64,000 nt of DNA from Candidatus Omnitrophota bacterium (GTDB taxonomy: Bacteria; Omnitrophota; Omnitrophia; Omnitrophales; Aquincolibacteriaceae): NCBI GenBank assembly GCA_022711115.1, contig JAKLFP010000010.1, positions 14,330 through 78,329 on the forward strand, given 5' to 3'. Made by a program: the position numbers and the translations under genes. Under the pieces are notes generated by a model, which had not been told where the DNA came from, searched no databases, and was given only the letters and a program-made list of their open reading frames with translations. Shown here piece by piece: positions 43,692 through 61,270 of this stretch. Each line of letters begins with the position of its first letter. The first letter of the stretch is position 1.

Positions 43692-46157
43692 ATGACAAAC
43701 ATCATGCATGTTTTTGAACTCAACTTCTATGCCGTGCCCCTTGTCGTGGTCGGGCTTCTGATGTTTCTGACCGGGCTTTACATTTTTCTCCACAACAAAC
43801 ACTCCCGCGCGAACTTCTCCTTTTTCCTGATCTGCCTTTGCGGTCTTTTTTGGTTTTTCGGAAATGCCGCGACCTATTCGGCGCGCACGCCGGAAGCCGC
43901 GCTCGCTTTTTACAGGGCGGTCACGTTTTTGGGCGTGGCCCTGATCGCGCCCTGTGTTTATTATTTTTCCGCAAGCTGGTTGAATCTTTTTGATAAGCAA
44001 AAGGCCGGCGTGCGGACCGCGCTTTTCTTGGGGGCTGCTTTTTATATTGTAGGGCTTTTTTCTCCAAGAAGTTTCCCCGGCGTCCGGCATTATTTTTGGG
44101 GCTACTATCCGGTCTATGGGCCGCTGAATTACTATTTTCTCGGCTATTTTTATCTGGTGCTGGCCAATGCGTTCTATAATTTTTTCAGGGCCTATTTCAA
44201 AGAACCGCGGGGTGTTCGCCGTACCCAGATCCGATTGATCACGCTCAGCTTTGTGGTGGCCTTTTTCAGCTCGCTTGATTATCTGCCGAAGCTGCTCTCT
44301 TATCCGGTTTATCCGCTGGGTTTTCTCCTCGTCTTTTTGTGGATCCTGATCGTGGCCTACGCCATCATCAAATACAGGGCCATGGATATCGAAACCGTGG
44401 TCCACAAGACCTTGATGTGGCTGGCCACCTCGGCGGTGGCGGTGGTGCCGTTCCTGGCAGTGATCTACGGGTTTGAAAAGATCCGGAATCCTTCCTCGAA
44501 CTTGCTTTCGACACTTTATTATTTTACGGTTTCGATCGCTTTTTATTTTTATTTCCGGGCCATCCAGCCGCGGCTGGACCATTGGTTCCAGCGCCGGCGC
44601 ACGAACCTGCTGGCGATTCTTGAGCAATTCTCCAAGGAGCTCGTGCATTTGAAGAACCTGCGCGACCTTCTGCAAAACTTCGCCCGCATGCTCCGGAACA
44701 AACTTTTTGTCCGCAGGCTTTCGGTCTACCTGTTGGATGAGAAAAAAGGGGAGTTTGTTCCCGCGATCGCCAAGGGGCTGCGCAGCTTAAAACCCTTTCC
44801 CAAGGGGCATCCCTTTTTTTCGTGGCTCGAGAAAACGGATGCCGTGGTGGTTGGGGAACTTGTGCTGGCGGATCCCTCCGTCGAAACGTTCAAAAAAGAA
44901 TTAGAAGATTATTTTCAGGCAACCCAATCCTTTTTAAGCGTGCCCTTTGTGCTCGGCGGGAAATTGATCGCCCTAGCGAACCTCGGCAAAAAAGCAAATC
45001 TGCGCCGGTATGGTTTTGAAGAAGTCCAATTTTTCGCCAAACTGAAAGCGCCGCTTACCATTGCCTTTTCGAATTCCATGCAGTTTGAGAATATTTCCGA
45101 ACTTTACAACCAGGTCCGCAAGATGAGCGAAGAACTGAAGCAATGGAACATCGAGCTGGAACAGCGCGTGGAAGATCGGACGCGCGAGTTGGTGAAAACC
45201 CAGGACCAGCTAGTGCAGGCCGAAAAACTCGCGACGCTCGGCACGCTTGCCGGCGGCGTGGCGCATGAGATCAACAATCCCTTGACGGCAGTTCTGACCA
45301 ACGCGCAGATCCTCAAAATGACGGCGGACGAAGATGTCCGGGAATCGCTGGACCTGATCGAGGAGGGCGCGAAGCGGTGCCAGCAGATCGTCCAAAAGCT
45401 CATGAAATACGCGCGTAAGACCGCGGAAGAGGCGCCGCACAAGGAAGTGGATCTGAATGAAGTGGTGCAAGGGACGTGCGCGCTTCTGGGGTTTCAATTT
45501 CAGCAAGAGAATATCGAGATTGAGACCAAGCTGGGCCAGATCCGCCGCGTGATGGGAATCGGCAATGAGCTGGAGCAGGTGCTTACGAACCTTCTTGTGA
45601 ACGCCCGGGATGCCATTAAGTCCAATCCTCAATCAAAAGATTTAAAGGTTAATGGGACTAGTCCTGGCAACCTTCAGTCAGAAGAAGATAGATGCCAGGG
45701 CAAATCCCATTCTCCATCAAAAGATTTAAAGGTTAATGGGACTAGTCCTGGCAACCTTCAGTCAGAAGAAGATAGATGCCAGGGCAAATCCCATTCTCCA
45801 TCAAAAGATTTAAAGGTTAATGGGACTAGCCCTGGCAACCTTCAGTCAGAAGAAGATAGATGCCAGGGCAAGTCTGCAAGAAGCCAAGGCCGGATTGTGG
45901 TCGAAACCCGCGGGAAGGGAGCCATGGTGGAACTTGTGGTCACGGACAACGGCATCGGTATTCCCAAAGGAAACCTCAAAAAGATCTTCGATCCCTTTTT
46001 TACGACCAAAGAGGTCGGTTCCGGTACTGGGTTGGGGCTTGCGGTCAGTTACGGCATCCTGAAGCGGCATAATGCTTCCGTGAGCGTTGATTCTTCGCCC
46101 GGCAAAGGTACTACCTTTGTGCTTTGCTTTCCCCGAAAGCAACAAGGTGAATCATGA
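43692..46157 (+). CDS. sensor histidine kinase (7TM N-terminal sensor, GAF-like, HisKA, HATPase_c) carrying an in-frame 3x28-aa repeat insertion
   Basis: 7 TM helices N-terminally; H-box [13 protein letters not shown]; N-box [10 protein letters not shown]; G-boxes DNGIGIP and GSGTGLGL. Three copies of [28 protein letters not shown] lie between the N box and G1 box. Confidence 0.85.
45633..45884 (+). repeat. 3 x 84-bp near-perfect in-frame tandem repeat inside the kinase ATP-binding domain
   Basis: Units start at about 45633, 45717 and 45801. A single T/C difference (actagtcct vs actagccct) separates copy 3 from copies 1-2. Confidence 0.9.
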
Positions 46158-46199: not shown

Positions 46200-46255
46200 T
46201 TAAAAATTCAAAGGTTAATTGGACTAGCCCTGGTGACCTTCAGTTAGATGAAAAA
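46200..46255 (+). repeat. diverged partial copy of the 84-bp repeat unit in the intergenic region
   Basis: caaaggttaattggactagccctggtgaccttcagttagatg aligns to the intragenic unit aaaggttaatgggactagtcctggcaaccttcagtcagaag at about 80 percent identity. Confidence 0.6.
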
Positions 46256-46319
46256 AAACAGGGGCATAACACTACCTTCACGCTCCGGTTTCCTGCGGCT
46301 CATTCATCCACCCAAAAGT

Positions 46320-47807
46320 ATGAATCCGTATAATTTTTCCATTTTGTGCTTTGGTTTTTGTTCCCTCCTCTTGGGACTTTTTGTCTGGCTCAAACGGCAG
46401 GATCGTGTCGGCCAATTGTATTTTGTGTTGTCTTTTTTTTATGCTGGTTGGGCGCTGCCATTTTCTATAAAAATCAGTGATAATATTTCCTATGCTGCGG
46501 CGTTATACGCAGCACGCATGGCGAATTGTTCCGCGGCATTTATCCCAACTGTTTGGCTTCATTTTTGTTTGGTTTATACCAAAAGAGATGAAACCCATAA
46601 AAAAATACTTAAACTTTTTTACGCAATACCGCTGCTCATTCTTGCTGTTTCTTTTACACCGTGGTTTGTCCCGGGGCTCAGACCTATTCTCAGTTTTAGA
46701 CACTATGCAACCCCGGGTATTTTTTATTATTTGATGACATTGAATTATTTTATAGTTATTCCGCTGGGCTTTAACCAGTTATTTGACAAGATGAAAGAGG
46801 TTTCAAGAGAAGAAAGGGAACAACTTTTAGGACTTTTTTTCTCGGCCTTTATTGGCTATTTGGGAGGCGCCTTAACTTTTTTGCCGATCTATGGCATTTC
46901 ATTCCCTCAAGAAGGTATGTTTCTGTTGCCGATTTATCCCTTTGCTCTGACGTACTTTATGATTAAGCAGAAGATCTTCGACATCGAGGAGTTGGCCCAG
47001 GCGGCTCATCGGGACAAGTTAACAGCGATCGGGGTTTTGGCGGCGAGCATCAATCATGAGATCAAAAATCCGCTTTTTATTATCAAGGGACTCGCGGAGA
47101 ATTGTCTGGAGCGGCAAAAGGAAGGTGTTTTTTCCAATAAAGAAAAAGCCCTGGAGAGCGCCAACGACGCGATGAAAAGGAGCGTCGAGCAAGCGGACCG
47201 GGCGATGGATATCATCCGTAGGTTGTCGCTTTTTGCCAAGGCCGGGATCGACAGTGAGATCAAATTCGAGTTTGTGAAGATCGCGGAAGTGCTTGAAAAT
47301 ATTTTGCCGCTGATCCGTTATGAACTAGCAGCGAAAAATATCGTACTGACCCGTGACATTCCGCCCAATATTCCCGAAGTCCGCGCGGACCGGCGTTATC
47401 TTGAGGAGATTCTTTTCAACCTGCTAGTGAATGCCTGCCAGGCTGTCAGGGAAACCGGACGGGAAGGGGAGATCAAAGTGACCGCGGCCGTCATTGCGAG
47501 GGAACGAAGCGACCGAAGCAATCTCCCAATTCCGGACCTTAATAAAACGGGATCGCTGCGGCCCAAAAATGGCCTCGTGATGACAACTCCTGACAAGGTC
47601 CTTATCACGATCCAGGACAACGGCCCCGGGATCCCTGAAGATAAAATCAAAGACGTTTTCCGCCCCTTTTACACCACCAAAGCCGAGGGCACCGGTCTAG
47701 GTCTTTACATCACCAAACAGCTTGTTGAAAAAATCGGTGGACGGATATCTGTTGAGTCCCAGCAAGGCATTGGCACGACTTTTAAAGTTATCCTGAAGGC
47801 AGCCTGA
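46320..47807 (+). CDS. sensor histidine kinase (7TM N-terminal sensor, HisKA, HATPase_c), paralog
   Basis: Start set at MNPYNFSILCFGF by analogy with the next paralog. H-box LAASINHEIKNPL; G-boxes DNGPGIP and GTGLGLYI. Confidence 0.85.
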   Translation: MNPYNFSILCFGFCSLLLGLFVWLKRQDRVGQLYFVLSFFYAGWALPFSIKISDNISYAAALYAARMANCSAAFIPTVWLHFCLVYTKRDETHKKILKLFYAIPLLILAVSFTPWFVPGLRPILSFRHYATPGIFYYLMTLNYFIVIPLGFNQLFDKMKEVSREEREQLLGLFFSAFIGYLGGALTFLPIYGISFPQEGMFLLPIYPFALTYFMIKQKIFDIEELAQAAHRDKLTAIGVLAASINHEIKNPLFIIKGLAENCLERQKEGVFSNKEKALESANDAMKRSVEQADRAMDIIRRLSLFAKAGIDSEIKFEFVKIAEVLENILPLIRYELAAKNIVLTRDIPPNIPEVRADRRYLEEILFNLLVNACQAVRETGREGEIKVTAAVIARERSDRSNLPIPDLNKTGSLRPKNGLVMTTPDKVLITIQDNGPGIPEDKIKDVFRPFYTTKAEGTGLGLYITKQLVEKIGGRISVESQQGIGTTFKVILKAA

Positions 47808-47810
47808 GCC

Positions 47811-49187
47811 ATGAATCCGTATAACTTCTCAGTCCTGTGTTTCGGTTTTTGCAGTTTGCTTCTCGGAATTTTCGTTTGGCTTAAGCGGCAAGATTATGTT
47901 GGGCGACTTTATTTTGCTTTATCCTTTTTTTATGCTGGTTGGGCAATTTTTATATCGATTAATCTTAATAATGACATTTCGCCGGACCTCGGTCTTCTTA
48001 TGGGGCGATTAGGGAATGGCTTTGCTATTTTTATTTCCATTATTTGGTATCATTTTGTTTTGGTTTATACAGGATTTATTGAAAAACATTACAAGTTGGT
48101 GAAGTTTTTTTACATCATCTCGATACTAACATTTTGTTTTGTGTTTTCACCTTGGTTTATTCCAAAGACAGCAACTATAGTTGGTTTTAAGCATTACTCG
48201 CAAGCTGGACCAATCCATTATTTTTTTTCATTCTTATTTTTCATTCTAGTCACACTAAGTTTTATTGAATTGCACCGGAAAATAAAGAACTCTTTCGGAT
48301 ATGAAAGAGCGCAATTCAAAGGACTTTTTTGGACAGCCCTTTTGGGGTATCTCGGAGGGAGTCCGGCTTTTCTTCCGATTTATGGGATTCCCATGCCCCA
48401 ATATTGTCTCTTTTTAATGCCCCTTTATCCATTCATGTTGGCTTACTTCATGACCAAACAAAAACTCTTCGATGTGGCGGAATTGGCCCAAGCGGCGCAT
48501 AGGGATAAACTTTCGGCAATTGGTTTATTGGCAGCCAGTATAAATCACGAGGTCAAAAATCCATTATTTGTCATTAAAGGCATGACAGAAACACAGTTGG
48601 AACGTTTGCATGACCCGACGCAGTCAACAGAAAAGTTAAGAGAAATGCTAGAAAAAACCCTTCAGCAGGCGGATCGGGCGCTTGGAATTATTCGAAGCTT
48701 TTCTGAGTATGCAAAAAGGCAAAGCTCGCGAACATTCGATAAACAAATGCTCGATATTCGAGAAGTTATTGACAATATTATTCCGTTTGTGCGCAGCGAG
48801 TTGGCTTTGGACTCTATTCACCTAGAGTTGAATATACCGGCAAAAACCATGATCTGTGCGGACCAGCAATCCATGGAAGAAATCTTTCTGAATTTAATCG
48901 TGAATGCCTGCCAGGCGATAAAAAGCACTAATAAAACGGGTGAGATTGAGATTTCATCAGAGAAAGAAGATCCGTGGATCAGGATTGCAGTGCGAGATAC
49001 CGGGCCGGGATTGTCACAGGATCAGCTTTCAAGGATCTTTGAGCCATTTTACACAACAAAAGTATCAGGGACAGGCCTTGGACTTTATGTGGTCAAGCAG
49101 CTTGTCGAGAAAAATCAAGGCAGGATTGAGGTAGTTTCAAAGATCGGCGTTGGGACCACCTTTACCCTTATCTTTTCGCAACACTAG
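47811..49187 (+). CDS. sensor histidine kinase (7TM N-terminal sensor, HisKA, HATPase_c), tandem paralog
   Basis: MNPYNFSVLCFGFCSLLLGIFVWLKRQ is almost identical to the N-terminus of the preceding gene. H-box LAASINHEVKNPL. Noticeably lower GC than the upstream paralog. Confidence 0.85.
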   Translation: MNPYNFSVLCFGFCSLLLGIFVWLKRQDYVGRLYFALSFFYAGWAIFISINLNNDISPDLGLLMGRLGNGFAIFISIIWYHFVLVYTGFIEKHYKLVKFFYIISILTFCFVFSPWFIPKTATIVGFKHYSQAGPIHYFFSFLFFILVTLSFIELHRKIKNSFGYERAQFKGLFWTALLGYLGGSPAFLPIYGIPMPQYCLFLMPLYPFMLAYFMTKQKLFDVAELAQAAHRDKLSAIGLLAASINHEVKNPLFVIKGMTETQLERLHDPTQSTEKLREMLEKTLQQADRALGIIRSFSEYAKRQSSRTFDKQMLDIREVIDNIIPFVRSELALDSIHLELNIPAKTMICADQQSMEEIFLNLIVNACQAIKSTNKTGEIEISSEKEDPWIRIAVRDTGPGLSQDQLSRIFEPFYTTKVSGTGLGLYVVKQLVEKNQGRIEVVSKIGVGTTFTLIFSQH

Positions 49188-49352: not shown

Positions 49353-50180
49353 ATGTTGTTCGAAAATATGAAAACAGCCATAGAGGATTTTTTTTATAAA
49401 AAAGTTATTCGCAATATATTAATGCTCAGCAATTTTGGGCGACGTAGCGTTTTAGGAGAAGCTGCTTCGGGTTATAATTTTGACTATATGTATGAAAATA
49501 AACCGCACGGTTTTTTAGGAATAGGATATTTAATTGATAAAATGTTGCTTAATTTACCAGCTGTTCAAGCAACCAGACTCCGGCGTGTAAATATTGTCAA
49601 AATTGTAAGCAACGAGATCGAAAACCATAGGTTACAAGGAAAAACAACGAAAATTTTAGATTTAGCATGTGGCGCAGGCCGATATCTGTCAGATATTGTA
49701 AAGATTTTTTCCAAGAATAAGATAGAGATTGTAGGAATTGATTACGATAATAAATCATTAAAATTAGCTAAAAATCTCAGTGAAAAAGAAGGTATCTCAA
49801 AGGAACAAATCAGATTTGTTAAAGGGAATGTCTTTAGGCTGAGTATTCTAAAAAAATTGGGAAAACGAGTTGATTGGCGACCTAACATTGTTATTGCATC
49901 AGGGCTGACCGTTTATATTGATGATGATGAAGTGATAAATATGCTAAAACAAATTTATGAAGGGTTAGCTCACGATGGATGCATATTAATCGATAGCCAG
50001 GAAAGCAATCCAAGTCGCAAGTTGATGGAAAAGGTTTTAAAGACCAAGCAAGGAGCTTGGATTCTTTACTATAGGTCTCCAGCACAATGGCGGCATTGGT
50101 TACATAAATGTGGGTTCAGAGATATCGTTATTAGTTGTGATCAATGGAAAATGTACAACCTATGTTCAGCGCGAAAATGA
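49353..50180 (+). CDS. class I SAM-dependent methyltransferase
   Basis: Motif I ILDLACGAGRYL plus downstream acidic and IASG motifs. Low-GC gene. Confidence 0.7.
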   Translation: MLFENMKTAIEDFFYKKVIRNILMLSNFGRRSVLGEAASGYNFDYMYENKPHGFLGIGYLIDKMLLNLPAVQATRLRRVNIVKIVSNEIENHRLQGKTTKILDLACGAGRYLSDIVKIFSKNKIEIVGIDYDNKSLKLAKNLSEKEGISKEQIRFVKGNVFRLSILKKLGKRVDWRPNIVIASGLTVYIDDDEVINMLKQIYEGLAHDGCILIDSQESNPSRKLMEKVLKTKQGAWILYYRSPAQWRHWLHKCGFRDIVISCDQWKMYNLCSARK

Positions 50181-50554
50181 TGGCAGTATCAAAACCAACA
50201 ATTTTATTAATAGATGATGATCAATTGGTGTTGCGCTCCTTGGCAAAAGCCTTGGAAAAGGCTGGTTATAATGTGTTAGCAGTAGATGGGTACGATACAG
50301 CGATGGCTGCCATTCATGATAAAAATTTTGACTTAGTTTTGTCGGATATTCGTATGCCAGGAAAGAACGGTGTTGATACTGCGAAAGAAATCCAAGATAG
50401 TTTAATTGCAAATGGTAAGAAAGATTTACCGATTATATTTATAACGGGCTATAGTGGCGATGAAGAAAAGTTGCAGACGCCTTTATTGGGAGAAACATTA
50501 TACAAACCTGTAGATATAAATCGTTTACTAACTATAATTCGGGATTATCTATGA
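50177..50554 (+). CDS. single-domain response regulator (CheY-like receiver)
   Basis: ILLIDDDQLVLRSL...LVLSDIRMPGKNG...K. Start moved to the ATG overlapping the methyltransferase stop (ATGA). Confidence 0.8.
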   Translation: MMAVSKPTILLIDDDQLVLRSLAKALEKAGYNVLAVDGYDTAMAAIHDKNFDLVLSDIRMPGKNGVDTAKEIQDSLIANGKKDLPIIFITGYSGDEEKLQTPLLGETLYKPVDINRLLTIIRDYL

Positions 50555-51798
50555 AAAATCGGGTTGCTGTTACAGGAATAGGCATTGTGAGTCCCATCGG
50601 AATTGGGATTGATAATTTTTGGAAGGCGACAATTTCTGGTGAATCTGGAGCAGGAGAAATTACATTATTTGACGCGTGTAATTATGCTACAAAAATTGCG
50701 GCAGAAGTGAAGAATTTTAATCCAGCGGACTTTATGCTTCCGGAAGTTTACAGAAAAACTGATAGGTTTGCTCAATTTGGAGTTGCTGCTGCAAAAATGG
50801 CTATTGAGGAATCAAGATTAGAAGGAGCTTATGATCTGCAACAGAATCGCATACCAGTTATTATTGGCTCAGGGTTAGGTGGAAGTTTATTTCATGAGGA
50901 ACAAATTTTTCAATTGATTGGGACTCAAGAGCCAAAAAAAGTGCTTTCGAGCTCTGTTCCCCGAATTACTCCAAATGCCGTATCAGCGTTTATTGCCATG
51001 CAATATAAATTTCGCGGAACTAATTTGACTATTTCAACGGCATGTTCTTCAGCAGGGAATGCGATTGCCTTGGCTGCCCAACAGATTGAAAATGGAAAAA
51101 CGGATATTGTGATTACAGGGGGAGTAGAATGTCCCATAACCCCCTTTACTTATGCAGCCTATCAATCTCTTCGGGTATTATCAAAGGGCTTACAAGGGGC
51201 CAAGAAGGCGTCTCGGCCGTTTGATAAAAAAAGAGATGGCTTTGTGTTAGGAGAAGGTGCTGGCATTTTAGTGTTGGAGAACTATGAAAAAGCGTGTTCA
51301 AGAAAAGCTATTATTCATGCCGAACTAAAAGGTTATGGAAGTAATTGTGGCGCTTTTCATATGGCTGCACCTGATCCTAGTGGAGCAGATGCAGCCGCAG
51401 TTATGCGTGAAGCTATAATGCATGCTGGGATTTCAACAGTAGAAATTGACTATATTAATGCACATGGGACAGCTACTCAAGCGAATGATGTATGTGAAGC
51501 AAAAGCTATTAATATGGTTTTTGAAGAAGGTGGGAAAAAACCTTTTGTTAGTAGCACAAAATCTCAAATAGGTCATACGATAGGAGGTGCAGGAGCAATA
51601 GGTGCTATTGCGGCTATTTTGGCTGTCAAAAATGATATTATTCCTCCTAATATTAATTGTGATGAGTTAGATGACCAATGCAATATTAATGTGGTTCAAG
51701 AAAAAGCGTTGCACGCTCGTACGATCAATGCCATTTCAAATTCTTTTGGTTTCGGATCTAATAATACGGCCTTAGTTTTTGGAAAAGCGGAATACTAA
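50551..51798 (+). CDS. beta-ketoacyl-ACP synthase II-like condensing enzyme (KAS, FabF/FabB type)
   Basis: Active-site TACSS Cys, plus His motifs NAHGTAT and GHTIGGAGA; 415 aa. Confidence 0.88.
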   Translation: MKNRVAVTGIGIVSPIGIGIDNFWKATISGESGAGEITLFDACNYATKIAAEVKNFNPADFMLPEVYRKTDRFAQFGVAAAKMAIEESRLEGAYDLQQNRIPVIIGSGLGGSLFHEEQIFQLIGTQEPKKVLSSSVPRITPNAVSAFIAMQYKFRGTNLTISTACSSAGNAIALAAQQIENGKTDIVITGGVECPITPFTYAAYQSLRVLSKGLQGAKKASRPFDKKRDGFVLGEGAGILVLENYEKACSRKAIIHAELKGYGSNCGAFHMAAPDPSGADAAAVMREAIMHAGISTVEIDYINAHGTATQANDVCEAKAINMVFEEGGKKPFVSSTKSQIGHTIGGAGAIGAIAAILAVKNDIIPPNINCDELDDQCNINVVQEKALHARTINAISNSFGFGSNNTALVFGKAEY

Positions 51799-51826
51799 AA
51801 TCATGAATGTGAAGGGAGTTACGATT

Positions 51827-52108
51827 ATGACGGATTCACTGCAAAGAAAAGAAATTTTACAAAGACTGGAAAAAATTTTTAGTAACCTTTTGCGATCAAT
51901 GCAGGAAAAAGATCTTAAAAAGCGTCCTATTATTTCTTTTGATACTGACATAGCAAAGGATCTTTCAATTGATTCTGTAGAAACACTCGATTTACTCAAT
52001 AGCATAGAAGAGGAATTTGAAGTGAGTCCTGATTTACATGTAGCTAACACAAAGCGGAAAGTCGGCCAGATTGTTGATTACATAATAGAATTGCAAGAGC
52101 AAAAATAA
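51827..52108 (+). CDS. acyl carrier protein (dedicated, ACP-like)
   Basis: DLSIDSVETLDLLNSIEEEF phosphopantetheine-attachment Ser in a DSxE context. Start chosen at the ATG preceded by a GAAGGGAG RBS. Confidence 0.7.
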   Translation: MTDSLQRKEILQRLEKIFSNLLRSMQEKDLKKRPIISFDTDIAKDLSIDSVETLDLLNSIEEEFEVSPDLHVANTKRKVGQIVDYIIELQEQK

Positions 52109-52131
52109 ATTTTGTTAAATGAGAAAATAAA

Positions 52132-52911
52132 ATGGCTATTAATAAAAAAGTTGAAGAAGAGAATAAGATTTGGATATTAGAAATCGATAATCCTCCGATG
52201 AATAATTTAAATCCTGTTGTGGTCGACGGACTTAGTCGAGAAATTAAAAGTTTTAATGAAGATGCTGTCGCTCGTTCAATGGTCATAACAGGGGCTGGTG
52301 AAAGAGTGTTTATCGGTGGGGTAGCGATTGAGGAGATTAGGAAAATAAAGTCTTCAGATCAAGGGATGATTCTAGCGAAAAAAGGACAAGAATTATGTAA
52401 TCAGATAGAAAATTCCGAAAAACCTATTATTGCAGCTGTAAATGCCCTGTGCATTGGTGGAGGGACAGAAATCCTTTTGGCTTGCCATCTCCGTGTGGCT
52501 TCCGAGAAAACAAAATTTGGTCAACCAGAAATTGCGATGGGTTTTATGCCTGGTTTTGGTGGGACTCAACGATTGCCACGTGTAGTTGGAATTTCACAAG
52601 CGCGTCGCCTTATTTTATTGGGGGAAACTATCGACGCTCAAGAAGCATATCGAATAGGGTTAATTGATTTTCTTGTTTCTAAAGAAAAACTGCTATCAAC
52701 AGCTATGAATCTGGCCAAAAAAATAGCTGAAAAAGGACCAATAAGCATTTTAATGGCACAGCGCTCTATTCAAAAAGGCTATCAAATGAATTTAAAAGAC
52801 GGTCTTGATTTGGAACTGAAGTTATTCGGAGAGCTTTGCAAAACTGAAGACATGAAAGAAGGATTACAGTCTTTTATTGATCATCGAAAAGCTATTTTTA
52901 AGGGACGATAA
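52132..52911 (+). CDS. enoyl-CoA hydratase/isomerase (crotonase) family protein
   Basis: Crotonase oxyanion-hole region ALCIGGGTEILLACHLRVA and FGQPEIAMGFMPGFGGTQRL; 259 aa. Confidence 0.85.
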   Translation: MAINKKVEEENKIWILEIDNPPMNNLNPVVVDGLSREIKSFNEDAVARSMVITGAGERVFIGGVAIEEIRKIKSSDQGMILAKKGQELCNQIENSEKPIIAAVNALCIGGGTEILLACHLRVASEKTKFGQPEIAMGFMPGFGGTQRLPRVVGISQARRLILLGETIDAQEAYRIGLIDFLVSKEKLLSTAMNLAKKIAEKGPISILMAQRSIQKGYQMNLKDGLDLELKLFGELCKTEDMKEGLQSFIDHRKAIFKGR

Positions 52912-52917
52912 AATCTG

Positions 52918-53541
52918 ATGATAAGTGGAGTAATCTGCTTTGGTGATAGTATTTTAGCTGGGACAGGAGCATCATTTCGCGATAAAGGATGTGCCAAGCT
53001 ATTGAAGGCAAGATTAAAAATACCAGTCTCTTTGAAAGGAATTAATCGTAATACCAGCCAAGATGGTTTAATTCGCTTACAGCAAGATGTGCTAGACCAG
53101 AAGAATTTATCTCATGTGATAATCCTTTTTGGGAATAATGATTGTCGTTTTGTAGATTCTAACCGCTTTTCTGTTTCCCAAGATCATTTTATTGAAAATC
53201 TCAAAGAAATGGCCGCTAGCATTAAACGCAACCATCAAATCCCCATGTTTTGTAATTTACAGCCAATAGATTTTCCAATGCTATTTCAATTCATGCCGGA
53301 AGTTCAAAAAATTTATAGTGAAAACAAAATAAACCCCGAAGAACTTCAAGGGACATATAGTGATTTGATTGAAAATTTTGCTAAGAAGAGCGCCGAAATC
53401 TTAATCGATATTAGAACTCCATTAAAATGTAAAAAAAATGAAATTTTGGCAAAAGATGGACTGCATCCCAATGATTATGGCCATGAGATAATTGCGCAAA
53501 AGATTTTCGCTGAATTAAAAAAATACGATTCTACAATTTAA
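52918..53541 (+). CDS. SGNH/GDSL hydrolase (TesA-like thioesterase/lipase family)
   Basis: N-terminal block I ICFGDSILAG (catalytic Ser) and C-terminal DGLHPN block (catalytic Asp/His); 207 aa. Confidence 0.75.
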   Translation: MISGVICFGDSILAGTGASFRDKGCAKLLKARLKIPVSLKGINRNTSQDGLIRLQQDVLDQKNLSHVIILFGNNDCRFVDSNRFSVSQDHFIENLKEMAASIKRNHQIPMFCNLQPIDFPMLFQFMPEVQKIYSENKINPEELQGTYSDLIENFAKKSAEILIDIRTPLKCKKNEILAKDGLHPNDYGHEIIAQKIFAELKKYDSTI

Positions 53542-53577
53542 CTTTTGATTTATAACGAAACTCAGGAAAGCATCTCA

Positions 53578-55875
53578 ATGGCATTCTATATCCTGATAAC
53601 GGGACTTATTACCGCATCATATGCAGGCCTGGGCCTTTTCGTTTTTTTAAATGATCGAAGGAAATTTCTTTTTCGAATTTTTTTGTTATTTTGTTTGTCC
53701 GTCGCCTTATGGGCGTTTGGATATTTTATAACTCTCTTATCTCATATTACTTATCCAGTCGCAATTTTATCTAGCCGTATTTCGCATGCCATTGGGGCTT
53801 TTATTCCGATTACCTTTTTGCACTTTGTCTTGTCGTTTCTTCGCATTGATACTAATCATCGCCGACTTTTGCAAAACGGTTATATTGTATCCACAATTAT
53901 GTTCGGCATTGCACTAACACCATATGTGGTAAGCGATGTGGTGCAAAAGATGGATATTCGATTTTATCCCGAAAAAGGGTTATTTTATCCAATATATGCG
54001 GCGCTTTATTTGGTTTATGCGCTTGGATTTGCTCAGTTTTATCTATTTAAATCTTTTTTGAGCGCTACCGGAATTAATAAAAAGCGACTTCTTTTCTTTA
54101 TAGTTTCAACATTTGTAGGTTTTATCGGTGGTGTTTCGCTTTTCTTGCTAATATTTAATATTCCTGTTCCTCCTTATGCTAGTTCACTTATTGTAATTTG
54201 GCCATTTGCAATGGCGTATACGATTATTAAATATCGCGAATTTAATATAGAAGTTATTATTAAAAGGACATTGGTTTTTACTGGAGTTTTTGGTTCAATC
54301 ATTGGCATTGTTGCTATTGTGACAACACTTGCTCAAAATTATTTGGGGCAATATCTTGGTATAGGGCTGTTGGCGCGACAGATTTTTAGTGTTTTGATTG
54401 CCATCTTGCTTTTTGATCCGATTCGAAAACTGCTGATTAATCTCACGGACAAATACCTTTTTCAGAAAAAGTACGACTACCACAAGCTGCTCAAGGACGC
54501 GTCGCGGGGGATGTCGAACATCGAGAGCCTGGAGCGGTTGCTGGGTCTGGTCGTGCACTTCGTGACCATGAAGATGCGCGTGAAGAACGCGGCGGTGTTG
54601 ATGCGGGAAGGGGGCATGGATCAGTTTCATCTGGTGTATCAGCGCGGGTACGATAAAAAACACGTTGCCCTGACGCTCTACAGTAATGACCCGCTGATCC
54701 ATTACCTGGAGAATCATCAGGAGGCCGTGGACATCGAAAGGGTGAAAGAACAAGTCGAATCCGCCTCCCACCAGCGCGACAGAAGCGAGGTCGCGTATGA
54801 TTATGAAGCGATTCGCGAACGGATGATCCAGTTGCAGGCCAGCTGTTGCGTGCCGAGTTTTTTGGGCAAGGAGCTCAAGAATGTTCTTCTGCTCGGCGAA
54901 AAAAAATCCGGCGAATATTATTCCAACGAAGACCTGAATCTGCTTTACACGCTGGCGCAGGAATCCGCGATTGCGATCGAGAATGCCTGGCTTTATGATG
55001 AGGCCAAGAAAAAATCCCGAGAACTCGAACACATCAATGAGCAATTGGAACATTCCAAAACGCTTTTGATGAAAGCCTTGCAAGAAGCCGAAGGCGCGAA
55101 CAAACAGCTTCAGGACACACAGGCACAGTTGATCCACGAGCAGAAAATGGCGACCCTGGGCCGTCTGGCCGCGTCCGTGGGGCATGAAGTCAACAACCCA
55201 CTGACCATTCTGTCCATGAACGTGTCGCGCGTGATCCTCAAGTACCGGAAAAACCCGGATATGAAAGTGATCGAGATCCTGGATGTTTTTGACAAGATGG
55301 AAAAAAATATCGAGCGCATCAAAGCCGTGGTGAACACACTGACCGGGCTCCTCAAGAAATCCGAAAAAGGAAAATTCGAACCGCTGTCGCTCAAGCTGAT
55401 CCTGGAAGAAACCCTGCCGCTCGTGCAGTTCCAGACCTATCTGGACAATCTTTCGGGCACGGAAGTGGATTTCAACGTGCCGGGCAATATCCCGCTTATT
55501 CGCGGCGATCTGGAGCGTTTGCAGGAGGTATTTCTCAATCTTTTCATCAATGCCTATCATGCCATGGCCGGGAAGCGGCACCGCAAGATCGCGGTGGCTG
55601 CCGAGATCGACCCGCAGGACTCAAAGATGGTGGCGATCCATTTCAGGGACAACGGTTCGGGCATGACCGAAGATGTCATCAAAAAGGTCTTCAATTACGG
55701 TTTCACCACCAAACCGCTAGGCAAAGGATCAGGGCTCGGCCTGTATATGTGCAAGTACATCATTGAGCTTCACGGCGGGACGATTGTGGTGCAAAGCAAA
55801 GTCGGGGAGGGGACGACGTTCACGCTGACGCTGCCGATCTACGAGGAGTCTCCGGCGCTGAAGGCGCGAAGCTAG
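53578..55875 (+). CDS. sensor histidine kinase (7TM N-terminal sensor, GAF-like, HisKA, HATPase_c); compositionally chimeric
   Basis: ATG at 53578 with an AGGAAAG RBS; the ORF-track start at 53545 is a TTG. H-box LAASVGHEVNNPL; G-boxes DNGSGM and GSGLGLYM. GC jumps from about 35 to about 60 percent near nt 54450. Confidence 0.85.
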   Translation: MAFYILITGLITASYAGLGLFVFLNDRRKFLFRIFLLFCLSVALWAFGYFITLLSHITYPVAILSSRISHAIGAFIPITFLHFVLSFLRIDTNHRRLLQNGYIVSTIMFGIALTPYVVSDVVQKMDIRFYPEKGLFYPIYAALYLVYALGFAQFYLFKSFLSATGINKKRLLFFIVSTFVGFIGGVSLFLLIFNIPVPPYASSLIVIWPFAMAYTIIKYREFNIEVIIKRTLVFTGVFGSIIGIVAIVTTLAQNYLGQYLGIGLLARQIFSVLIAILLFDPIRKLLINLTDKYLFQKKYDYHKLLKDASRGMSNIESLERLLGLVVHFVTMKMRVKNAAVLMREGGMDQFHLVYQRGYDKKHVALTLYSNDPLIHYLENHQEAVDIERVKEQVESASHQRDRSEVAYDYEAIRERMIQLQASCCVPSFLGKELKNVLLLGEKKSGEYYSNEDLNLLYTLAQESAIAIENAWLYDEAKKKSRELEHINEQLEHSKTLLMKALQEAEGANKQLQDTQAQLIHEQKMATLGRLAASVGHEVNNPLTILSMNVSRVILKYRKNPDMKVIEILDVFDKMEKNIERIKAVVNTLTGLLKKSEKGKFEPLSLKLILEETLPLVQFQTYLDNLSGTEVDFNVPGNIPLIRGDLERLQEVFLNLFINAYHAMAGKRHRKIAVAAEIDPQDSKMVAIHFRDNGSGMTEDVIKKVFNYGFTTKPLGKGSGLGLYMCKYIIELHGGTIVVQSKVGEGTTFTLTLPIYEESPALKARS

Positions 55876-56055: not shown

Positions 56056-56096
56056 AAGAGATTGCCATGCCATCAAAACGAGGCTCGCAATGACAG
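56056..56096 (+). repeat. hairpin repeat family copy A (GAGATTGCCAYGYC...CTCGCAATGACA)
   Basis: aagagattgccatgccatcaaaacgaggctcgcaatgacag, 9 nt upstream of the GIY-YIG start codon. Confidence 0.6.
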
Positions 56097-56104
56097 AGTA
56101 ACCT

Positions 56105-56386: not shown

Positions 56387-56390
56387 TTTT

Positions 56391-56433
56391 AAGAGATTGC
56401 CACGCCCCTCAAAACGGGGCTCGCAATGACAAA
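56391..56433 (+). repeat. hairpin repeat family copy B
   Basis: aagagattgccacgcccctcaaaacggggctcgcaatgacaaa, 5 nt after the GIY-YIG stop. Confidence 0.6.
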
Positions 56434-56479
56434 CAGGAGAAAAGTCGCAGTTTGTGGTTAGCGGTCTGGAGTTTTTAGT

Positions 56480-56836
56480 ATGAAAAAAATACTGATTGTG
56501 GATGATGAAGTCGGGATCGTGCAGGAGATCAAGGAATTCCTGACCGAAGAAGGCTATGACGCTTATACGGCGGATACAGCCAAGGAAGGGATCCGTCTGA
56601 TCCAGGAATTGAAACCGGATGTGGTTTTTATTGATGTGAAACTGCCGGATGCGTCCGGGATCGACGTGCTGAAGGCGTGTAAGGAAGAGTCTCCCAGAAC
56701 CAAGACCGTCATGGTGACGGGCTATGTGGATCAGAATTTGATGGATGAGGCCGAAGCGGTCGGGCGTGACGCGTTTCTTCAAAAACCTTTTGACCTTGTC
56801 CGCATCACCGAAGAAATCGAACGGTTGCTTGGCTAG
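56480..56836 (+). CDS. single-domain response regulator (CheY-like receiver)
   Basis: ILIVDDEVGIV...VVFIDVKLPDASG...K; 118 aa. Confidence 0.85.
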   Translation: MKKILIVDDEVGIVQEIKEFLTEEGYDAYTADTAKEGIRLIQELKPDVVFIDVKLPDASGIDVLKACKEESPRTKTVMVTGYVDQNLMDEAEAVGRDAFLQKPFDLVRITEEIERLLG

Positions 56837-56929
56837 ACTATAGGCCATCACTATAGACTGGAGACGGCAGACTGAGGCATGTCATCGCGAGCGAAGCGTG
56901 GCGATCTCCTGGCTATCGAAGTCGGTAAA

Positions 56930-57285: not shown

Positions 57286-57822
57286 ATGAATTTTATTCAA
57301 ACAGAAATTCCGGGTGTGATCCTGATCGAGCCCAAGGTCTTTCATGACCCGCGCGGCTTTTTTTATGAAAGTTACCGCAGAAAACTTTTCGCGGCCAACG
57401 GGATCAAGGACCATTTTGTCCAGGACAACATCAGCTCGTCGGCCAAAGGAGTTTTGCGCGGCCTTCATTATCAGATTGCGCCACGGGCTCAGGCGAAGCT
57501 GATGCGTGTGATCAAAGGGTCTGTTTACGATGTTGTTGTGGATATCCGGCCACGGTCCAAAACTTTCGGCAAATTTGTCGCGGTCACGCTTTCTGCGGAA
57601 AACAGAAAGTTACTTTATATCCCCAAAGGTTTCGCGCACGGTTTTTGCGTTCTGGAAGACGGCACGGAATTCATGTACAAGGTTTCGGACTATTATTCAC
57701 CCGAACACGAGCGAGGCATCCTCTGGAGTGATCCGGGTCTGGCGATCCCTTGGCCGAAGTTGGATCGCGCATTCATCCTTTCCGAGAAAGACAAAAAATA
57801 CCCTACCCTCAGCAGCTTATAG
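57286..57822 (+). CDS. rfbC: dTDP-4-dehydrorhamnose 3,5-epimerase
   Basis: Cupin RmlC motifs (FHDPRGFFYESY, RGLHYQ, DGTEFMYKVSDYY); 178 aa. Confidence 0.92.
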   Translation: MNFIQTEIPGVILIEPKVFHDPRGFFYESYRRKLFAANGIKDHFVQDNISSSAKGVLRGLHYQIAPRAQAKLMRVIKGSVYDVVVDIRPRSKTFGKFVAVTLSAENRKLLYIPKGFAHGFCVLEDGTEFMYKVSDYYSPEHERGILWSDPGLAIPWPKLDRAFILSEKDKKYPTLSSL

Positions 57823-57898
57823 CCGATAGCTCATGGACAATAGCTAATAGCTCATAGCTTTTAGCTATAAGCTAGAGTCTAGGGTCTCAAGTCTAGAG

Positions 57899-58330
57899 CT
57901 ATAGGTTTTCTTTCGGCGTGATATTCCAGTGATACAGGATTATGGAGGAACCTTGGGGGCCGATGTCGAGGGTGATTTGGGTTTCCGGTTTATCCTGAAA
58001 ACACATTTTGGAAGATTTTTGGCAGTAATAAATATCCGCCTTGAGCGCGAGGATGGCATGTCCCGGTCTTGTCTTGAGCGTGATCTTAAAAGTATTGCCG
58101 GAGAGTTTTGGCAATGGCTTCGGAATTTCAACAATGTCGGGATTGGCGGTCTGGCAGGCGATTGAATGAGGGGCCTGCGGGATGAGCTCGTAGCCCTTGG
58201 GAAGATAAAGCTTCACCGTTAAGGTTGTGTCTCCTTGCTGTACCTGAAAAGCCGTTGCCTCTGTCTGTGTGATTGACAGAAGCAACAGGAACAAACTTGA
58301 AAGGATGATTTTCCCGAAATATTTTTTCAT
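57899..58330 (-). CDS. secreted hypothetical protein
   Basis: Signal peptide MKKYFGKIILSSLFLLLLSITQTEA; 143 aa. Confidence 0.55.
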   Translation of the reverse strand: MKKYFGKIILSSLFLLLLSITQTEATAFQVQQGDTTLTVKLYLPKGYELIPQAPHSIACQTANPDIVEIPKPLPKLSGNTFKITLKTRPGHAILALKADIYYCQKSSKMCFQDKPETQITLDIGPQGSSIILYHWNITPKENL

Positions 58331-58480
58331 TTTAAGGAACCTTTAAAGTATTATCAATGGAATGAGAAGCTTTCTCAAGGAGAAAAACAACAGGCGACAG
58401 ACTGGCGACTCAAAGTCTGCCATCGCGAGCCGAAGGCGAAGCGATCTCTTATCAATGATTAAAATAATAAGGAATTAATA

Positions 58481-58533
58481 AAAGGAGATTGCCACGTCGC
58501 TCCTTTGGAGCTTCTCGCAATGACAAAATGACC
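58481..58533 (+). repeat. hairpin repeat family copy D (longer inner stem GGAGC/GCTCC)
   Basis: aaaggagattgccacgtcgctcctttggagcttctcgcaatgacaaaatgacc, upstream of the DUF167 gene. Confidence 0.55.
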
Positions 58534-58571
58534 GATTCCGTCTTCGCGAGCCAAATGCGGCAAAAGACGCC

Positions 58572-58802
58572 ATGAAGCTGACGATCAAAGTTAAAACGAA
58601 CGCTAAAGAGAACAGAGTAGAGAATACTGCGGACGGGGGATGGCGCGTTCTGGTGAAGGCCCCGCCGCAAGAAGGGCGCGCGAATGAAGCGGTCATCGAG
58701 GCGCTCGCGGGCCATTTCCGCGTTCCTAAAAGCCGGATTGCGATCATCGGGGGTTTCAAAAGCAAAACTAAAGTTGTTCGAGTCGGAGCGTGCGAGTGCT
58801 GA
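58572..58802 (+). CDS. DUF167 (YggU-like) family protein
   Basis: IKVKTNAKENRVE...VKAPPQEGRANEA...L...IIGG..S..K is a typical DUF167 pattern; 76 aa. Confidence 0.75.
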   Translation: MKLTIKVKTNAKENRVENTADGGWRVLVKAPPQEGRANEAVIEALAGHFRVPKSRIAIIGGFKSKTKVVRVGACEC

Positions 58803-58921
58803 TTTTTAGACCACAGACGGCAGACCACAGACAAGAGGCCCAACATCTCAAAAGAGCTTTCAGACTGCAGTCATCAGTCTGTAGTCTGATGGCAATAGTA
58901 TTTATGGTAAAATAGATTCAT

Positions 58922-61270
58922 ATGTTCCGACAGATTGCAGAATTTATCTACCATTTTCGCTGGCCCGTTTTTCTGGCCATGATCCTCAGCCTTTTTTTTG
59001 CCGGCATCGCGCTTTCCCATCTGACGGTGGATCCCTCCATGGAGCCGCTTTTCATCAAAAAATCTCCCGAATACAAGTATTATCAGGAATACCGCCAGAA
59101 ATACGGCAGCGACCAGATGATCGCCGTTGCAATGTCGACGAGCGACCTGTTCACGGAACCGAACCTCAAGGTGCTCAAGAACATTACGGAAGGCATTTCA
59201 AGCTACGAACAAGTAGAACGTGTCATGAGTCTCGCGAACATTCAGGACATCAAGCATAAAGGGCTCGGGGTCAAGATGGTCCCGGCGCTTCAGGGGGTTT
59301 TTGAGAAAGAAAGGACGTTTGAAGAGGCTAAAAGGGACATCCTCCGCAATGAACTTTATCTCAATAACCTGGTTTCCAAGGACGGGAAGATCGCCAATGT
59401 CCTGGTCTATCTGAAGCCGGCGGAAAAGGATTCCGTGACCGGTGATATTTTTATTGAAAAACTCAAAGATTATCTCAATGATTTTGAGCGGCCGGACCTG
59501 AAATTCTACATGGCCGGGGCGCCGGTTGAACAATATGAATTTATCAGGCTGATCCAACGCGACCAGCTTGTTTTTGTGCCTATGATCGCTTTGGTCCTGA
59601 TCGTGATGACCTTCTGGATCTACCGGAGTTTTACGTGCATGATCCTTTCGATGTCGATCGTTTTTATAACCCTTCTCTGGACGCTTGGGACCATCGCGGG
59701 TTTGGGGCAGCAACTCAATCTGATGACGTCGCTTCTCGCGCCCGTGATCATGATTGTCTCGGTGATCAATTCGACCTACCTGATCAATCTCTTTTTTGAG
59801 ATCCGTCCGCATCACACGAGCCTTAAAGAATCCGTGATCCGGACCATCGAACAACTCGGCTTGCCGTGTTTTCTGACGCATTTTACGGCGATTCTGGGGT
59901 TCGGATCGCTCGCTTTGAATCCGATCCCCGCCATCCAGAGTTTCGGGATTTTTGCCGCGCTCGGGACGTTTTATTCTTACATCGTGGAGATCATCATGAC
60001 CACGCTGTTGCTGCCGATCTTGCCATACCGGCCGCTGAAAGTGGATCTGCGCAGCGATCGGCACTTTTTTAACCGGGTTTTTCTTGGGTTTCTCGAGAAA
60101 TTCGAATACCGGTGGAGGTGGTGGATCCTGATCACCACTTTTCTTGTGCTTGTTTTTTCCCTCGAGGGGATCCGGAAGATCGAAGTGGACACGAACATCG
60201 TCAAGCAGATGAAGCCGGACCTGCCGCTGGCGGTCGCGACCAAATTTATCGATGATCGTCTTACGGGCGTCTATTCCCTCGGATTTGTTTTCCGGCGCAA
60301 GGACGGTGAGAGCATGGTGGATTACAAGGCCCTGACCCTCCTGGATCAATTCAAAACCTATCTTGAGAAAGAGCCGGGGATCGCGAAGGTCAACAGCATC
60401 ACCACGCTTATCAAAAAGATCAATGAAGCCCGCAAGGACGATCCTGACGCCTATCTCATTCCCGATAAATCCATTCTTCTCAAGCTCTATTTTAAAGGGA
60501 TGGTGGCTTCCGAGGACCCGGAGCTTTATAAAATGATCTCCCCGAATTTTAAAGAGATCCGGATGGAGGCGCGGATGCGCGCGATCGGAACCACGCAGGG
60601 AGCTTTATTAGAAGAACGGGTCCGTGAATATCTGGAAAGGAATCTGAGCGGTTTCTTCGAGTATAAGTTGACGGGCAATGTGGTGCTGCTTGGAAAGATC
60701 GCCAAGAGTCTTGTGCATGAGCAGACACGAAGTTTTTTGTTTGCCTTTATTTCGATTCTGATCGTGATTGTCTTGATCTTCCGTTCGATCCGTTTGGGTC
60801 TTTTGGCGGCCATCCCGAATGTTTTTCCGATTCTGGCGGTCTATGGGATCATGGGGTTTGCCGGGATCGAGCTTTCGACCGCGACGGCCATGATCGCGAG
60901 CATCGTCTTGGGTCTGGTGGTGGATGCCTCGATCCAGTTCCTGTACCGGTTTCGCAAGGAATTCCAGCACCGTTCGCATTATATCCAGTCCCTGCATCAT
61001 ACTTACCGCAATATGGGGCTGTCTATGGTCGTTTCGACGCTGATCCTTTGTCTTGGTTTCGCTTCGAGCGTGTTCGCCAGTTTTCGCATCACGGTTCATT
61101 TCGGAGCCCTGACGAGCCTGACGATCTTTTTGGCGCTCTTGTGTTCGCTTTTGGTGCTTCCGGTGTTTTTGACCATGGTCAAACCCTTCGGCCCGCAGCG
61201 GCTTTTTAAGCGAAAGGTTTCGGGCAAGGAATCTATTTCGGAGCATGCGGGGCCGGTGAAGGACGTTTAG
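58922..61270 (+). CDS. MMPL/RND-superfamily exporter (two 6-TM bundles with periplasmic domains; HpnN-like architecture)
   Basis: 782 aa with 12 predicted TM helices in a 1+5 / 1+5 arrangement; RND/MMPL-like TM4 region. Confidence 0.75.
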   Translation: MFRQIAEFIYHFRWPVFLAMILSLFFAGIALSHLTVDPSMEPLFIKKSPEYKYYQEYRQKYGSDQMIAVAMSTSDLFTEPNLKVLKNITEGISSYEQVERVMSLANIQDIKHKGLGVKMVPALQGVFEKERTFEEAKRDILRNELYLNNLVSKDGKIANVLVYLKPAEKDSVTGDIFIEKLKDYLNDFERPDLKFYMAGAPVEQYEFIRLIQRDQLVFVPMIALVLIVMTFWIYRSFTCMILSMSIVFITLLWTLGTIAGLGQQLNLMTSLLAPVIMIVSVINSTYLINLFFEIRPHHTSLKESVIRTIEQLGLPCFLTHFTAILGFGSLALNPIPAIQSFGIFAALGTFYSYIVEIIMTTLLLPILPYRPLKVDLRSDRHFFNRVFLGFLEKFEYRWRWWILITTFLVLVFSLEGIRKIEVDTNIVKQMKPDLPLAVATKFIDDRLTGVYSLGFVFRRKDGESMVDYKALTLLDQFKTYLEKEPGIAKVNSITTLIKKINEARKDDPDAYLIPDKSILLKLYFKGMVASEDPELYKMISPNFKEIRMEARMRAIGTTQGALLEERVREYLERNLSGFFEYKLTGNVVLLGKIAKSLVHEQTRSFLFAFISILIVIVLIFRSIRLGLLAAIPNVFPILAVYGIMGFAGIELSTATAMIASIVLGLVVDASIQFLYRFRKEFQHRSHYIQSLHHTYRNMGLSMVVSTLILCLGFASSVFASFRITVHFGALTSLTIFLALLCSLLVLPVFLTMVKPFGPQRLFKRKVSGKESISEHAGPVKDV

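Follow-up and report, generated by a model that had tools for sequence, protein, structure and literature searches.

An intragenic compositional step in an Omnitrophota histidine kinase as the probable border of an exchangeable sensor module

Histidine kinases evolve in a modular way, with a conserved transmitter carrying exchangeable input domains, and DNA acquired by a bacterium tends to be richer in AT than the core genome of its host. In the staphylococcal agr locus the hypervariable region takes in agrB, agrD and the part of agrC that encodes the sensor, and the cytoplasmic kinase part and the response regulator are conserved (PMC10482373). In Bacillus comQXPA, variation in ComP is concentrated in the N-terminal multi-transmembrane (multi-TM) domain, the cytoplasmic domain being much better conserved, and goes along with variation in comQ and comX upstream; that paper makes no statement on composition, the phrase "GC content" occurring 0 times in it (PMC4008528). 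Here we analyse a 64,000-nucleotide stretch of DNA from a Candidatus Omnitrophota bacterium (contig JAKLFP010000010.1, positions 14,330 to 78,329; hereafter the window, to which all coordinates refer), and within it HK4, a gene for a 765-aa histidine kinase on the forward strand (53578..55875, with an alternative TTG start at 53545). The reading we prefer, with a probability of roughly 0.7, is that HK4 lies at the border of a positionally conserved hypervariable region, and that a swappable AT-rich module of sensor and enzyme cassette is placed there on a conserved transmitter.

As judged from its sequence, HK4 is a class I (HisKA-type) sensor histidine kinase, having both the HATPase_c domain and the dimerisation and histidine phosphotransfer (DHp) features of that class. 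Its beginning matches HisKA_7TM (PF16927, aa 9–224) at 41.2 bits, above the cut-off of 28.6 for this 7TM profile; two further TM segments, a GAF-like domain, HisKA and HATPase_c follow, and a hydropathy scan recognises about nine hydrophobic segments in the sensor, of which the last ends at about aa 279–287. HATPase_c (PF02518) scores 82 bits (cut-off 26.4), HisKA falls under the Pfam cut-off (21.4 against 26.9 bits), and the GAF-like domain between the sensor and DHp is seen as a GAF_3 match of 24.2 bits, below the cut-off of 27, with PF13492 precomputed for some homologues. In an alignment of 46 HK4 homologues (A1) the H-box, S533-V-G-H536-E-V-N-N-P-L, is invariant, as are the N, G1 and G2 boxes (N654/N658, D691-N692-G693-x-G695, and G715...G721), and the DHp and catalytic (CA) region aligns to the structures of FixL and ZraS (2.5e-29 and 1.5e-27, respectively). 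More than 100 full-length homologues with 54–81% identity were found, the named ones mostly annotated as Candidatus Omnitrophota, and because they share this architecture it must be old and conserved and no new fusion; it points to allelic or modular replacement within one positional orthologue, and not to the graft between different kinases that had been supposed in the initial annotation.

The two halves of the protein are conserved to very different degrees. Members of the close clade share 86–94% identity in the transmitter, a figure that falls to about 70% over the phylum as a whole, and most invariant positions of alignment A1 are found in the cytoplasmic half. Searched alone, the N-terminal half returned only three fragments from a word-indexed database; an exhaustive HMMER search for the sensor family returned 3027 representative proteins, from a library that carries no taxonomy or context, the nearest being 79% (a fragment), 52% and 42% identical. 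It was also observed that the cytoplasmic half, at 0.88–0.94 identity within the clade, is above both the RmlC epimerase (0.81–0.84) and the MMPL transporter (0.76–0.85) encoded downstream, which is unusual for a sensor kinase.

The compositional step within HK4 is sharp. A likelihood analysis of GC content at third codon positions (GC3) places a single change point best after codon 288 (nt 54442), with a 2-log-likelihood support interval, taken here as the junction, of 54364..54472; the log-likelihood ratio is 66.2, and the maximum among 500 permutations is 8.8. The last hydrophobic segment ends at about this position, so that both the step and its placement at the end of the last TM helix, as first noted from the DNA alone, are borne out. 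The variable, type-specific sensor half with its approximately nine TM segments (53578..54441) has a GC content of 0.36, close to the 35% given earlier, and a GC3 of 0.30; the conserved transmitter half (54442..55875), comprising a juxtamembrane segment, the GAF-like domain, HisKA with H536, and HATPase_c, has a GC content of 0.53 and a GC3 of 0.72. For these per-segment compositions the halves were taken as 53578–54450 (N-half) and 54451–55875 (C-half). At four-fold degenerate sites the GC is 36% in the N-half and 0.85–0.87 in the C-half. In 30-codon windows GC3 remains at 0.17–0.50 up to nt 54477, is 0.80 in 54433–54522, and reaches 0.93–0.97 in the next two (54478–54612), and the within-gene GC3 range of 0.61 is the largest in the window, all other genes having 0.43 or less.

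Other parts of the initial description of the transmitter half require correction. Its overall GC content had been put at about 60 percent and is 53%, with only some 90-nt windows reaching 0.60–0.63. The reported saturation of GC3 holds for codons 297–346 (54466..54615, GC3 0.96, the highest 50-codon value in the window), and does not hold for the remainder of the C-half, where GC3 is 0.53–0.87. The C-half does have the highest gene-level GC3 in the window (0.72), but it is not far richer than every other gene: on the 300-codon scale its value of 0.71 is equalled by the MMPL gene (0.71) and by the paralogous kinase gene HK1 (0.70), and its four-fold GC of 0.87 compares with 0.81 in HK1, 0.85 in the downstream receiver gene RR2 and 0.77 in MMPL. 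The composition of the C-half is thus the top of a continuous range and no outlier. Neither is it the sole anomaly, since genes in the window typically have a GC3 of about 0.5 and the low-GC3 block that ends at the junction (49353–54441, GC3 0.25–0.31) deviates at least as strongly; an anomalous AT-rich island had been named at the outset as an observation that would speak against a foreign GC-rich half, and this is largely what is found.

Scans of species-representative genomes and metagenomes returned 98 full-length loci, 82 of them unique, in which junctions were located by tblastn and global alignment. When sensor types are defined at 50% identity, the 82 unique orthologues comprise 45 sensor types, as against 40 transmitter clades; of the 17 sensor types with several members, 11 occur in two or more transmitter clades. 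The window's own transmitter clade (at least 85% identity) has 24 members, which carry 13 sensor types between them. Among pairs with a C-half identity of at least 0.85 the N-half identity is below 0.45 in 273 of 298, and for pairs with an N-half identity of at least 0.5 the C-half is below 0.75 in 54 of 83; given these rank reversals between the halves, differences in rate alone are insufficient as an explanation. The nearest neighbour is common to both halves in only 16 of the 82 orthologues. The expectations that the halves would differ in their closest relatives, and that the junction is a domain-level recombination boundary, are consequently upheld, the histories of sensor and transmitter being decoupled across this set.

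The same decoupling is evident for the window itself. Its C-half is 0.86–0.91 identical to about 18 clade members, and its N-half is related to those of only four loci (L003, 0.80; L002, 0.69; L001, 0.59; L005, 0.56), with all others at 0.24–0.38. Locus L004 is the best relative of the window by the C-half (0.91) but has an unrelated sensor (0.37), and L005 has a distant C-half (0.71) and the same sensor type (0.56). In three-taxon topologies MMPL and the HK4 C-half group L001 with L003, HK4-N groups the window with L003, and for the cassette genes either the window pairs with L001 or the three form a star. Within the close clade pairwise amino-acid identity rises from 0.25–0.45 to 0.89–0.97 at the site of the GC3 step.

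The step is not particular to the window. L001, a separate assembly in the European Nucleotide Archive (ENA) with an HK4 protein 78% identical to that of the window, is syntenic throughout (HK1, HK2, HK3, methyltransferase, receiver, ketosynthase, acyl carrier protein, enoyl-CoA hydratase, GDSL hydrolase, HK4, RR2, RmlC, MMPL and DUF11), and its GC3 rises at the same codon (0.41 to 0.74), as does that of L002 (0.40 to 0.75). Between the window and L001 the four-fold sites of the N-half are near saturation (identity 0.32), and despite near-saturated synonymous sites the compositional landscape is kept gene by gene, which argues against a simple fading foreign signature. Over all 98 loci the GC3 of the C-half exceeds that of the N-half by a median of 0.16 (extremes -0.04 and +0.42), and by more than 0.1 in 67 loci; the difference is never clearly negative, and that in the window is the second largest. 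Across loci the GC3 of the N-half correlates with that of the upstream genes (r = 0.87) and the GC3 of the C-half with that of the downstream genes (r = 0.83), the cross-correlations being weaker (0.46 and 0.30). With the step at the same codon in orthologues of 78–81% identity whose synonymous sites are near saturation, and widespread in the phylum, the event cannot be the recent one initially proposed.

Sensor type is strongly linked to the genes upstream of it. In the window these form a low-GC3 cassette (49353..53541, forward strand, GC3 0.25–0.31, identified by Pfam and NCBIfam) encoding a Methyltransf_20 methyltransferase, a receiver-only response regulator, a FabF-like ketosynthase (KS), an acyl carrier protein (ACP), a crotonase (enoyl-CoA hydratase, ECH) and a GDSL hydrolase, and the cassette is syntenic in L001, L003 and L005. 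Where two loci have the same sensor type, the genes directly upstream are homologous in 56 of 63 pairs, and where the types differ this is so in 126 of 2863 (odds ratio 174). The linkage is present inside the clade of the window (12/12 against 9/219) and also when pairs from different clades are compared (42/48 against 117/2623). Other sensor types carry different sets of lipid or acyl enzymes, usually with a receiver protein; among the sensor-type cassettes are ones with Methyltransf_20 methyltransferases and with an alpha/beta-hydrolase–receiver fusion, and further types have 4HBT thioesterases with an ICMT-type membrane methyltransferase, or a PlsC-type acyltransferase with a HAD hydrolase. 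In addition to the full-length loci there are 18 short-form loci (L037, L042–L044, L046, L066, L068 and others) that have neither cassette nor 7TM sensor, and in which HK4 follows an upstream ORF with little or no spacer, this being an HK1 orthologue where identified (7 loci, 38–51% identity). In the clearest of these HK4 consists of a two-TM anchor of about 65–101 aa followed by the conserved cytoplasmic half, and loci with this anchor have no clear GC3 step. By sequence comparison the short-form loci look like the empty state of the variable site.

Nucleotide identity between genomes of different sensor types is 0.35–0.56 in the sensor, and at the junction it jumps from 0.56–0.65 to 0.84; exact runs of at least 20 nt between such genomes are densest in the first stretch 3' of the junction. 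The longest shared run falls within aa 288–350 for 70 of 258 pairs; over all 258 pairs the longest runs have a median of 31 nt and a maximum of 104. The GC3 spike at codons 297–346 lies in this stretch, with a clade-mean GC3 of 0.82–0.88 and an amino-acid identity of 0.96–0.97, and synonymous codon identity is also highest in the junction-proximal stretch (ratio 1.44–1.59). We propose that the spike (54466..54615) could serve as an anchor for homologous recombination. Folding of 54440–54640 gave a z-score of -0.29, and RNA structure at the spike was rejected; consensus scans for an internal promoter or terminator at the junction were at background level, and gene conversion between the paralogues HK1 and HK4 was discarded, there being only 25% identity between them.

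The scheme that we think probable is as follows. HK1 on one side of a variable region and the HK4 transmitter, RR2, RmlC and MMPL on the other form a conserved frame, HK4 lying at the right-hand border of the variable region, and this region contains modules consisting of a receiver, a few lipid- or acyl-modifying enzymes and a multi-TM HK4 sensor half that runs in frame into the conserved transmitter. Modules appear to be exchanged among lineages, as indicated by the uncoupling of sensor type from transmitter phylogeny. The right-hand crossover would fall in the ultra-conserved stretch just after the last TM helix (LTDK[FY]LFQKKYDYHKLLKDASRGMSNIESLE...), where genomes carrying different modules share their longest exact nucleotide runs, and HK1 or the spacer downstream of it is the probable left anchor. 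The compositional step reflects two evolutionary compartments, an AT-rich module resembling the rest of the variable region and a GC3-rich transmitter resembling the flanks. Functionally, the GAF-like/HisKA/HATPase core would signal to RR2 (56480..56836, forward strand; GC3 0.61, four-fold GC 0.85), a conserved stand-alone receiver that is present 2.3–2.8 kb after the HK4 start in most full-length loci and is likely to be the cognate partner of HK4; the swappable sensor would couple this core to a putative product or substrate of the resident lipid-modifying cassette.

Several points weigh against this reading of HK4 as the border of an exchangeable AT-rich module. Exchange is deduced from incongruent phylogenies and not from a directly observed event: the metagenome scan gave no pair of same-species genomes carrying different modules, and the nearest relative with another module is only about 90% identical in its C-half. 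We likewise infer how the crossover takes place and where the left-hand anchor lies. For the cassette type with KS, ACP, ECH and GDSL genes the cassette and sensor topologies differ in the three-taxon comparison, such that the module is itself mosaic. Variability is also imperfectly associated with low GC3: the sensor of HK1 varies and has a high GC3, and that of HK2, which has a low GC3 and a step of its own, is conserved between the window and L001. Finally, the same cassette type has a GC3 of about 0.28 in the window, 0.40 in L001 and 0.60 in L003, and parsimony-polarised changes, at small site counts, put the equilibrium GC3 of the N-half at about 0.34 and that of the C-half at about 0.69; with segments near their own equilibria and cassettes of differing GC3, composition simply inherited from a donor is a poor fit.

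The HK2 gene (46248–47807) deserves separate description. Its GC3 rises from 0.32–0.43 to 0.60–0.70 at about aa 240, the junction between 7TM and transmitter, and its amino-acid identity to the L001 orthologue is uniform (0.67–0.83) along its length. Low GC3 and hypervariability can therefore be uncoupled. The AT-richness of the module could be a property of an accessory gene pool, or could stem from a lack of GC-biased gene conversion (gBGC) or of selection within the module.

The alternative that survives best concerns this last question, and as a sub-mechanism it is compatible with module exchange. Here composition would depend on recombination, with gBGC pushing the recombining core towards GC, most strongly at the junction-proximal anchor, and the module, seldom finding a partner to recombine with, relaxing to an AT-biased mutational equilibrium. 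gBGC has been proposed for bacteria, where GC3 is associated with recombination (PMC4450053), and several of our observations agree with it: the module is never clearly GC-richer than the core, the GC3 spike coincides with maximal nucleotide identity and with the exact-match runs after the junction as well as with the highest synonymous codon identity, and the equilibrium-like substitution fluxes differ by segment. The two neighbouring kinases count against it, HK1 being hypervariable in its sensor but GC3-rich and HK2 conserved but GC3-poor, and gBGC in bacteria is itself debated. On balance we hold this mechanism to be a serious but minority possibility.

A cause acting in situ, with no transfer, is distinctly less probable. 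The sensor and cassette might use slow or rare AT-ending codons, for membrane insertion or low expression, and the ultra-conserved transmitter might use GC-ending codons preferred for accuracy. In the window GC3 is lower in the 7TM part of three HisKA_7TM kinases out of four, HK2 has a GC3 step with no step in conservation, the polarised substitutions suggest that each half is near its own equilibrium, and the difference between halves is never clearly negative across the 98 loci, all of which would fit. A codon effect of TM domains as a general rule was nevertheless rejected, as HK1, of the same architecture, and MMPL, with 12 TM segments, are GC3-rich, although a weaker step of this kind is seen in HK2 and HK3; moreover the soluble enzymes of the cassette are as AT-rich as the sensor, and one cassette type takes three GC3 values in three genomes. 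Translational accuracy as the main cause was also dismissed, GC3 being independent of column conservation within each half (for the C-half 0.74 against 0.71, p=0.68). Even were codon usage shaped in situ, the phylogenetic incongruence would still demand recombination.

The origin put forward in the initial annotation, in which a high-GC donor recently supplied the GAF-HisKA-HATPase transmitter for a sensor that was resident or carried by an island, now seems very improbable. It accounts for a sharp step at a domain boundary, and the C-half and its codons 297–346 do have the top gene-level and local GC3 in the window. The transmitter is, however, the vertically conserved part, co-varying with the downstream core genes; its composition equals that of HK1, RR2 and MMPL, the resident conserved flanks; orthologues with nearly saturated four-fold sites also have the step; and close relatives of both halves are all Omnitrophota. 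The earlier interpretation is thus partly supported, being right about a domain-level recombination boundary and wrong on donor, direction and age.

Two further explanations carry almost no weight. The 428-aa antisense ORF reported earlier does exist (54295..55581, reverse strand), and an overlapping gene there could in principle constrain C-half codons and would suit both the long stop-free frame and the somewhat raised synonymous conservation of the C-half, but the ORF is in exact codon register, as expected wherever sense TTA, CTA and TCA are avoided, antisense-stop codons scale inversely with GC3 (1–8 in close relatives, 23–30 in low-GC ones), and the frame is broken at varying places and interrupted in L004, L010 and L013, marking it, as was already suspected, as a by-product of codon usage and no gene. 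Equally negligible is a chimeric assembly or binning artefact that fused two organisms within HK4, for which the metagenomic source and the abruptness of the step might speak: the exact HK4 protein is on four ENA contigs of 50–200 kb, one of which (ERZ27257456 k141_862368, L161) is identical to the window across 14.3 kb around HK4, a 230-kb contig from another sample held by the Joint Genome Institute (JGI; Ga0116241_10000119, L160) differs by 5 nt over the same length, the reading frame is intact, and dozens of independent assemblies show the same step, so that a misjoin at the junction is ruled out. The five differences between the window and the JGI contig are clustered at 55433–55438 and change Q619-T620-Y621 to P-D-H, in columns that are at least 90% invariant among the 46 aligned sequences, of which the JGI variant (P0001) is one, and are flanked by the invariant Q617 and N624; one of the two records may contain a sequencing or local assembly error here, or a compensated micro-indel.

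The other kinases and the right flank are on the forward strand. HK1 (43692..46157), the conserved left-flank kinase, is a 25%-identical paralogue of HK4 with the same architecture (GC3 0.62, four-fold GC 0.81). It contains an in-frame tandem repeat of three 84-bp units (45621–45871, 97% matches, a 28-aa unit) in the HATPase region between the N-box and the G1-box, where GC3 is about 0.33, and a 51-nt copy of the repeat (86%) lies in the HK1–HK2 spacer at 46202–46252, just before the HK2 start. HK2 and HK3 (46248..49187) are tandem paralogous HisKA_7TM kinases within the variable, lower-GC3 region, as recognised by Pfam and by comparison of loci, between which their presence varies; the paralogy is visible in their 5' ends, 46320–46489 and 47811–47980 being 70% identical over 170 nt. 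The conserved right-flank core (57286..61270, GC3 0.59–0.67) includes the RmlC epimerase gene (57286–57822) and the MMPL/HAE3 resistance-nodulation-division (RND) transporter gene (58922–61270). By Pfam and NCBIfam the genes of 43.7–57.8 kb encode only kinases, enzymes, receivers and GIY-YIG proteins.

RR2 is bracketed by two small low-GC3 genes for GIY-YIG proteins (56105–56386 and 56879–57208), the first of which is flanked by 26-nt direct repeats (56070–56095 and 56406–56431, 92%). Between HK4 and RR2, L001 and L002 have 23S_rRNA_IVP/bAvd-type genes in place of GIY-YIG, and 56070–57208 is thus a second small variable spot. As to classical hallmarks of an integrative island, no integrase or recombinase was found among the genes of 43.7–57.8 kb, no tRNA gene adjoins the variable region (the nearest being at 63.4–63.7 kb), and no long direct repeats bracket 46–54.5 kb.

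What the module might be for is suggested by its content. The cassette enzymes are generic (a FabF-like KS, ACP, crotonase, GDSL hydrolase and S-adenosylmethionine-dependent methyltransferase), and the ECH matches generic enoyl-CoA hydratase models only, all below cut-offs. A crotonase beside a sensor kinase recalls systems of the diffusible signal factor (DSF) type, in which an RpfF crotonase with a catalytic Glu pair and acyl-ACP thioesterase activity is paired with the sensor RpfC, and this possible resemblance is offered as no more than a lead. In the most far-reaching interpretation, one that we regard as speculative and rather unlikely, the phylum would possess a pherotype-like system in which dozens of interchangeable modules of lipid or acyl enzymes and a matching multi-TM sensor dock in frame onto one kinase core beside an MMPL lipid exporter, each lineage making and sensing its own envelope lipid or lipid signal, and in which the GC3 spike of the docking hotspot would be a footprint of biased gene conversion. 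If so, the system could have a role in self-recognition, in recognition of a host or partner, or in envelope homeostasis.

More generally, the intragenic GC step may be re-read as the border of a reusable module, and a step in composition and conservation after the last TM helix could be used as a marker for exchangeable sensor modules in uncultured phyla. If the sensor is indeed matched to its linked cassette, this would provide a route to the inputs of an extremely conserved and otherwise uncharacterised Omnitrophota kinase, and a natural set of at least 45 sensor variants on one transmitter with which to study coupling between membrane sensors and kinase cores. The persistent AT-richness of the module offers a test case for distinguishing foreign origin from recombination-dependent forces such as gBGC in bacteria.

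How the locus compares with described systems can be summarised as follows. In common with sensor-domain shuffling and with AT-rich accessory regions in general, it has an AT-richer segment that is replaced by recombination in conserved flanks. It differs from the usual accessory region in that the border lies inside an ORF and is reused across the phylum, in having no integrase, adjoining tRNA or long flanking direct repeat, and in a compositional landscape that persists between orthologous loci at near-saturated synonymous sites. With Bacillus comQXPA it shares variable production genes and a variable kinase sensor next to a conserved transmitter and regulator, although ComP belongs to the HisKA_3 kinases, its input is an isoprenylated peptide, and the polymorphism of comQXPA is intraspecific. 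As in staphylococcal agr, the variable region has one of its ends within the kinase gene, here at the junction of sensor and transmitter, and sensor type is linked to the upstream genes. Unlike in agr, no peptide precursor, processing enzyme or AgrB-like protease was recognised here, the linked genes instead being lipid or acyl enzymes and a receiver; HK4 is of the HisKA type and AgrC of the HPK10 type; and there are at least 45 types between species across the phylum, compared with the four intraspecific groups of agr. By analogy, then, this is a locus that resembles the pherotype-type layout of agr and comQXPA in architecture only, and it should be set beside those systems and not filed as one of their members.

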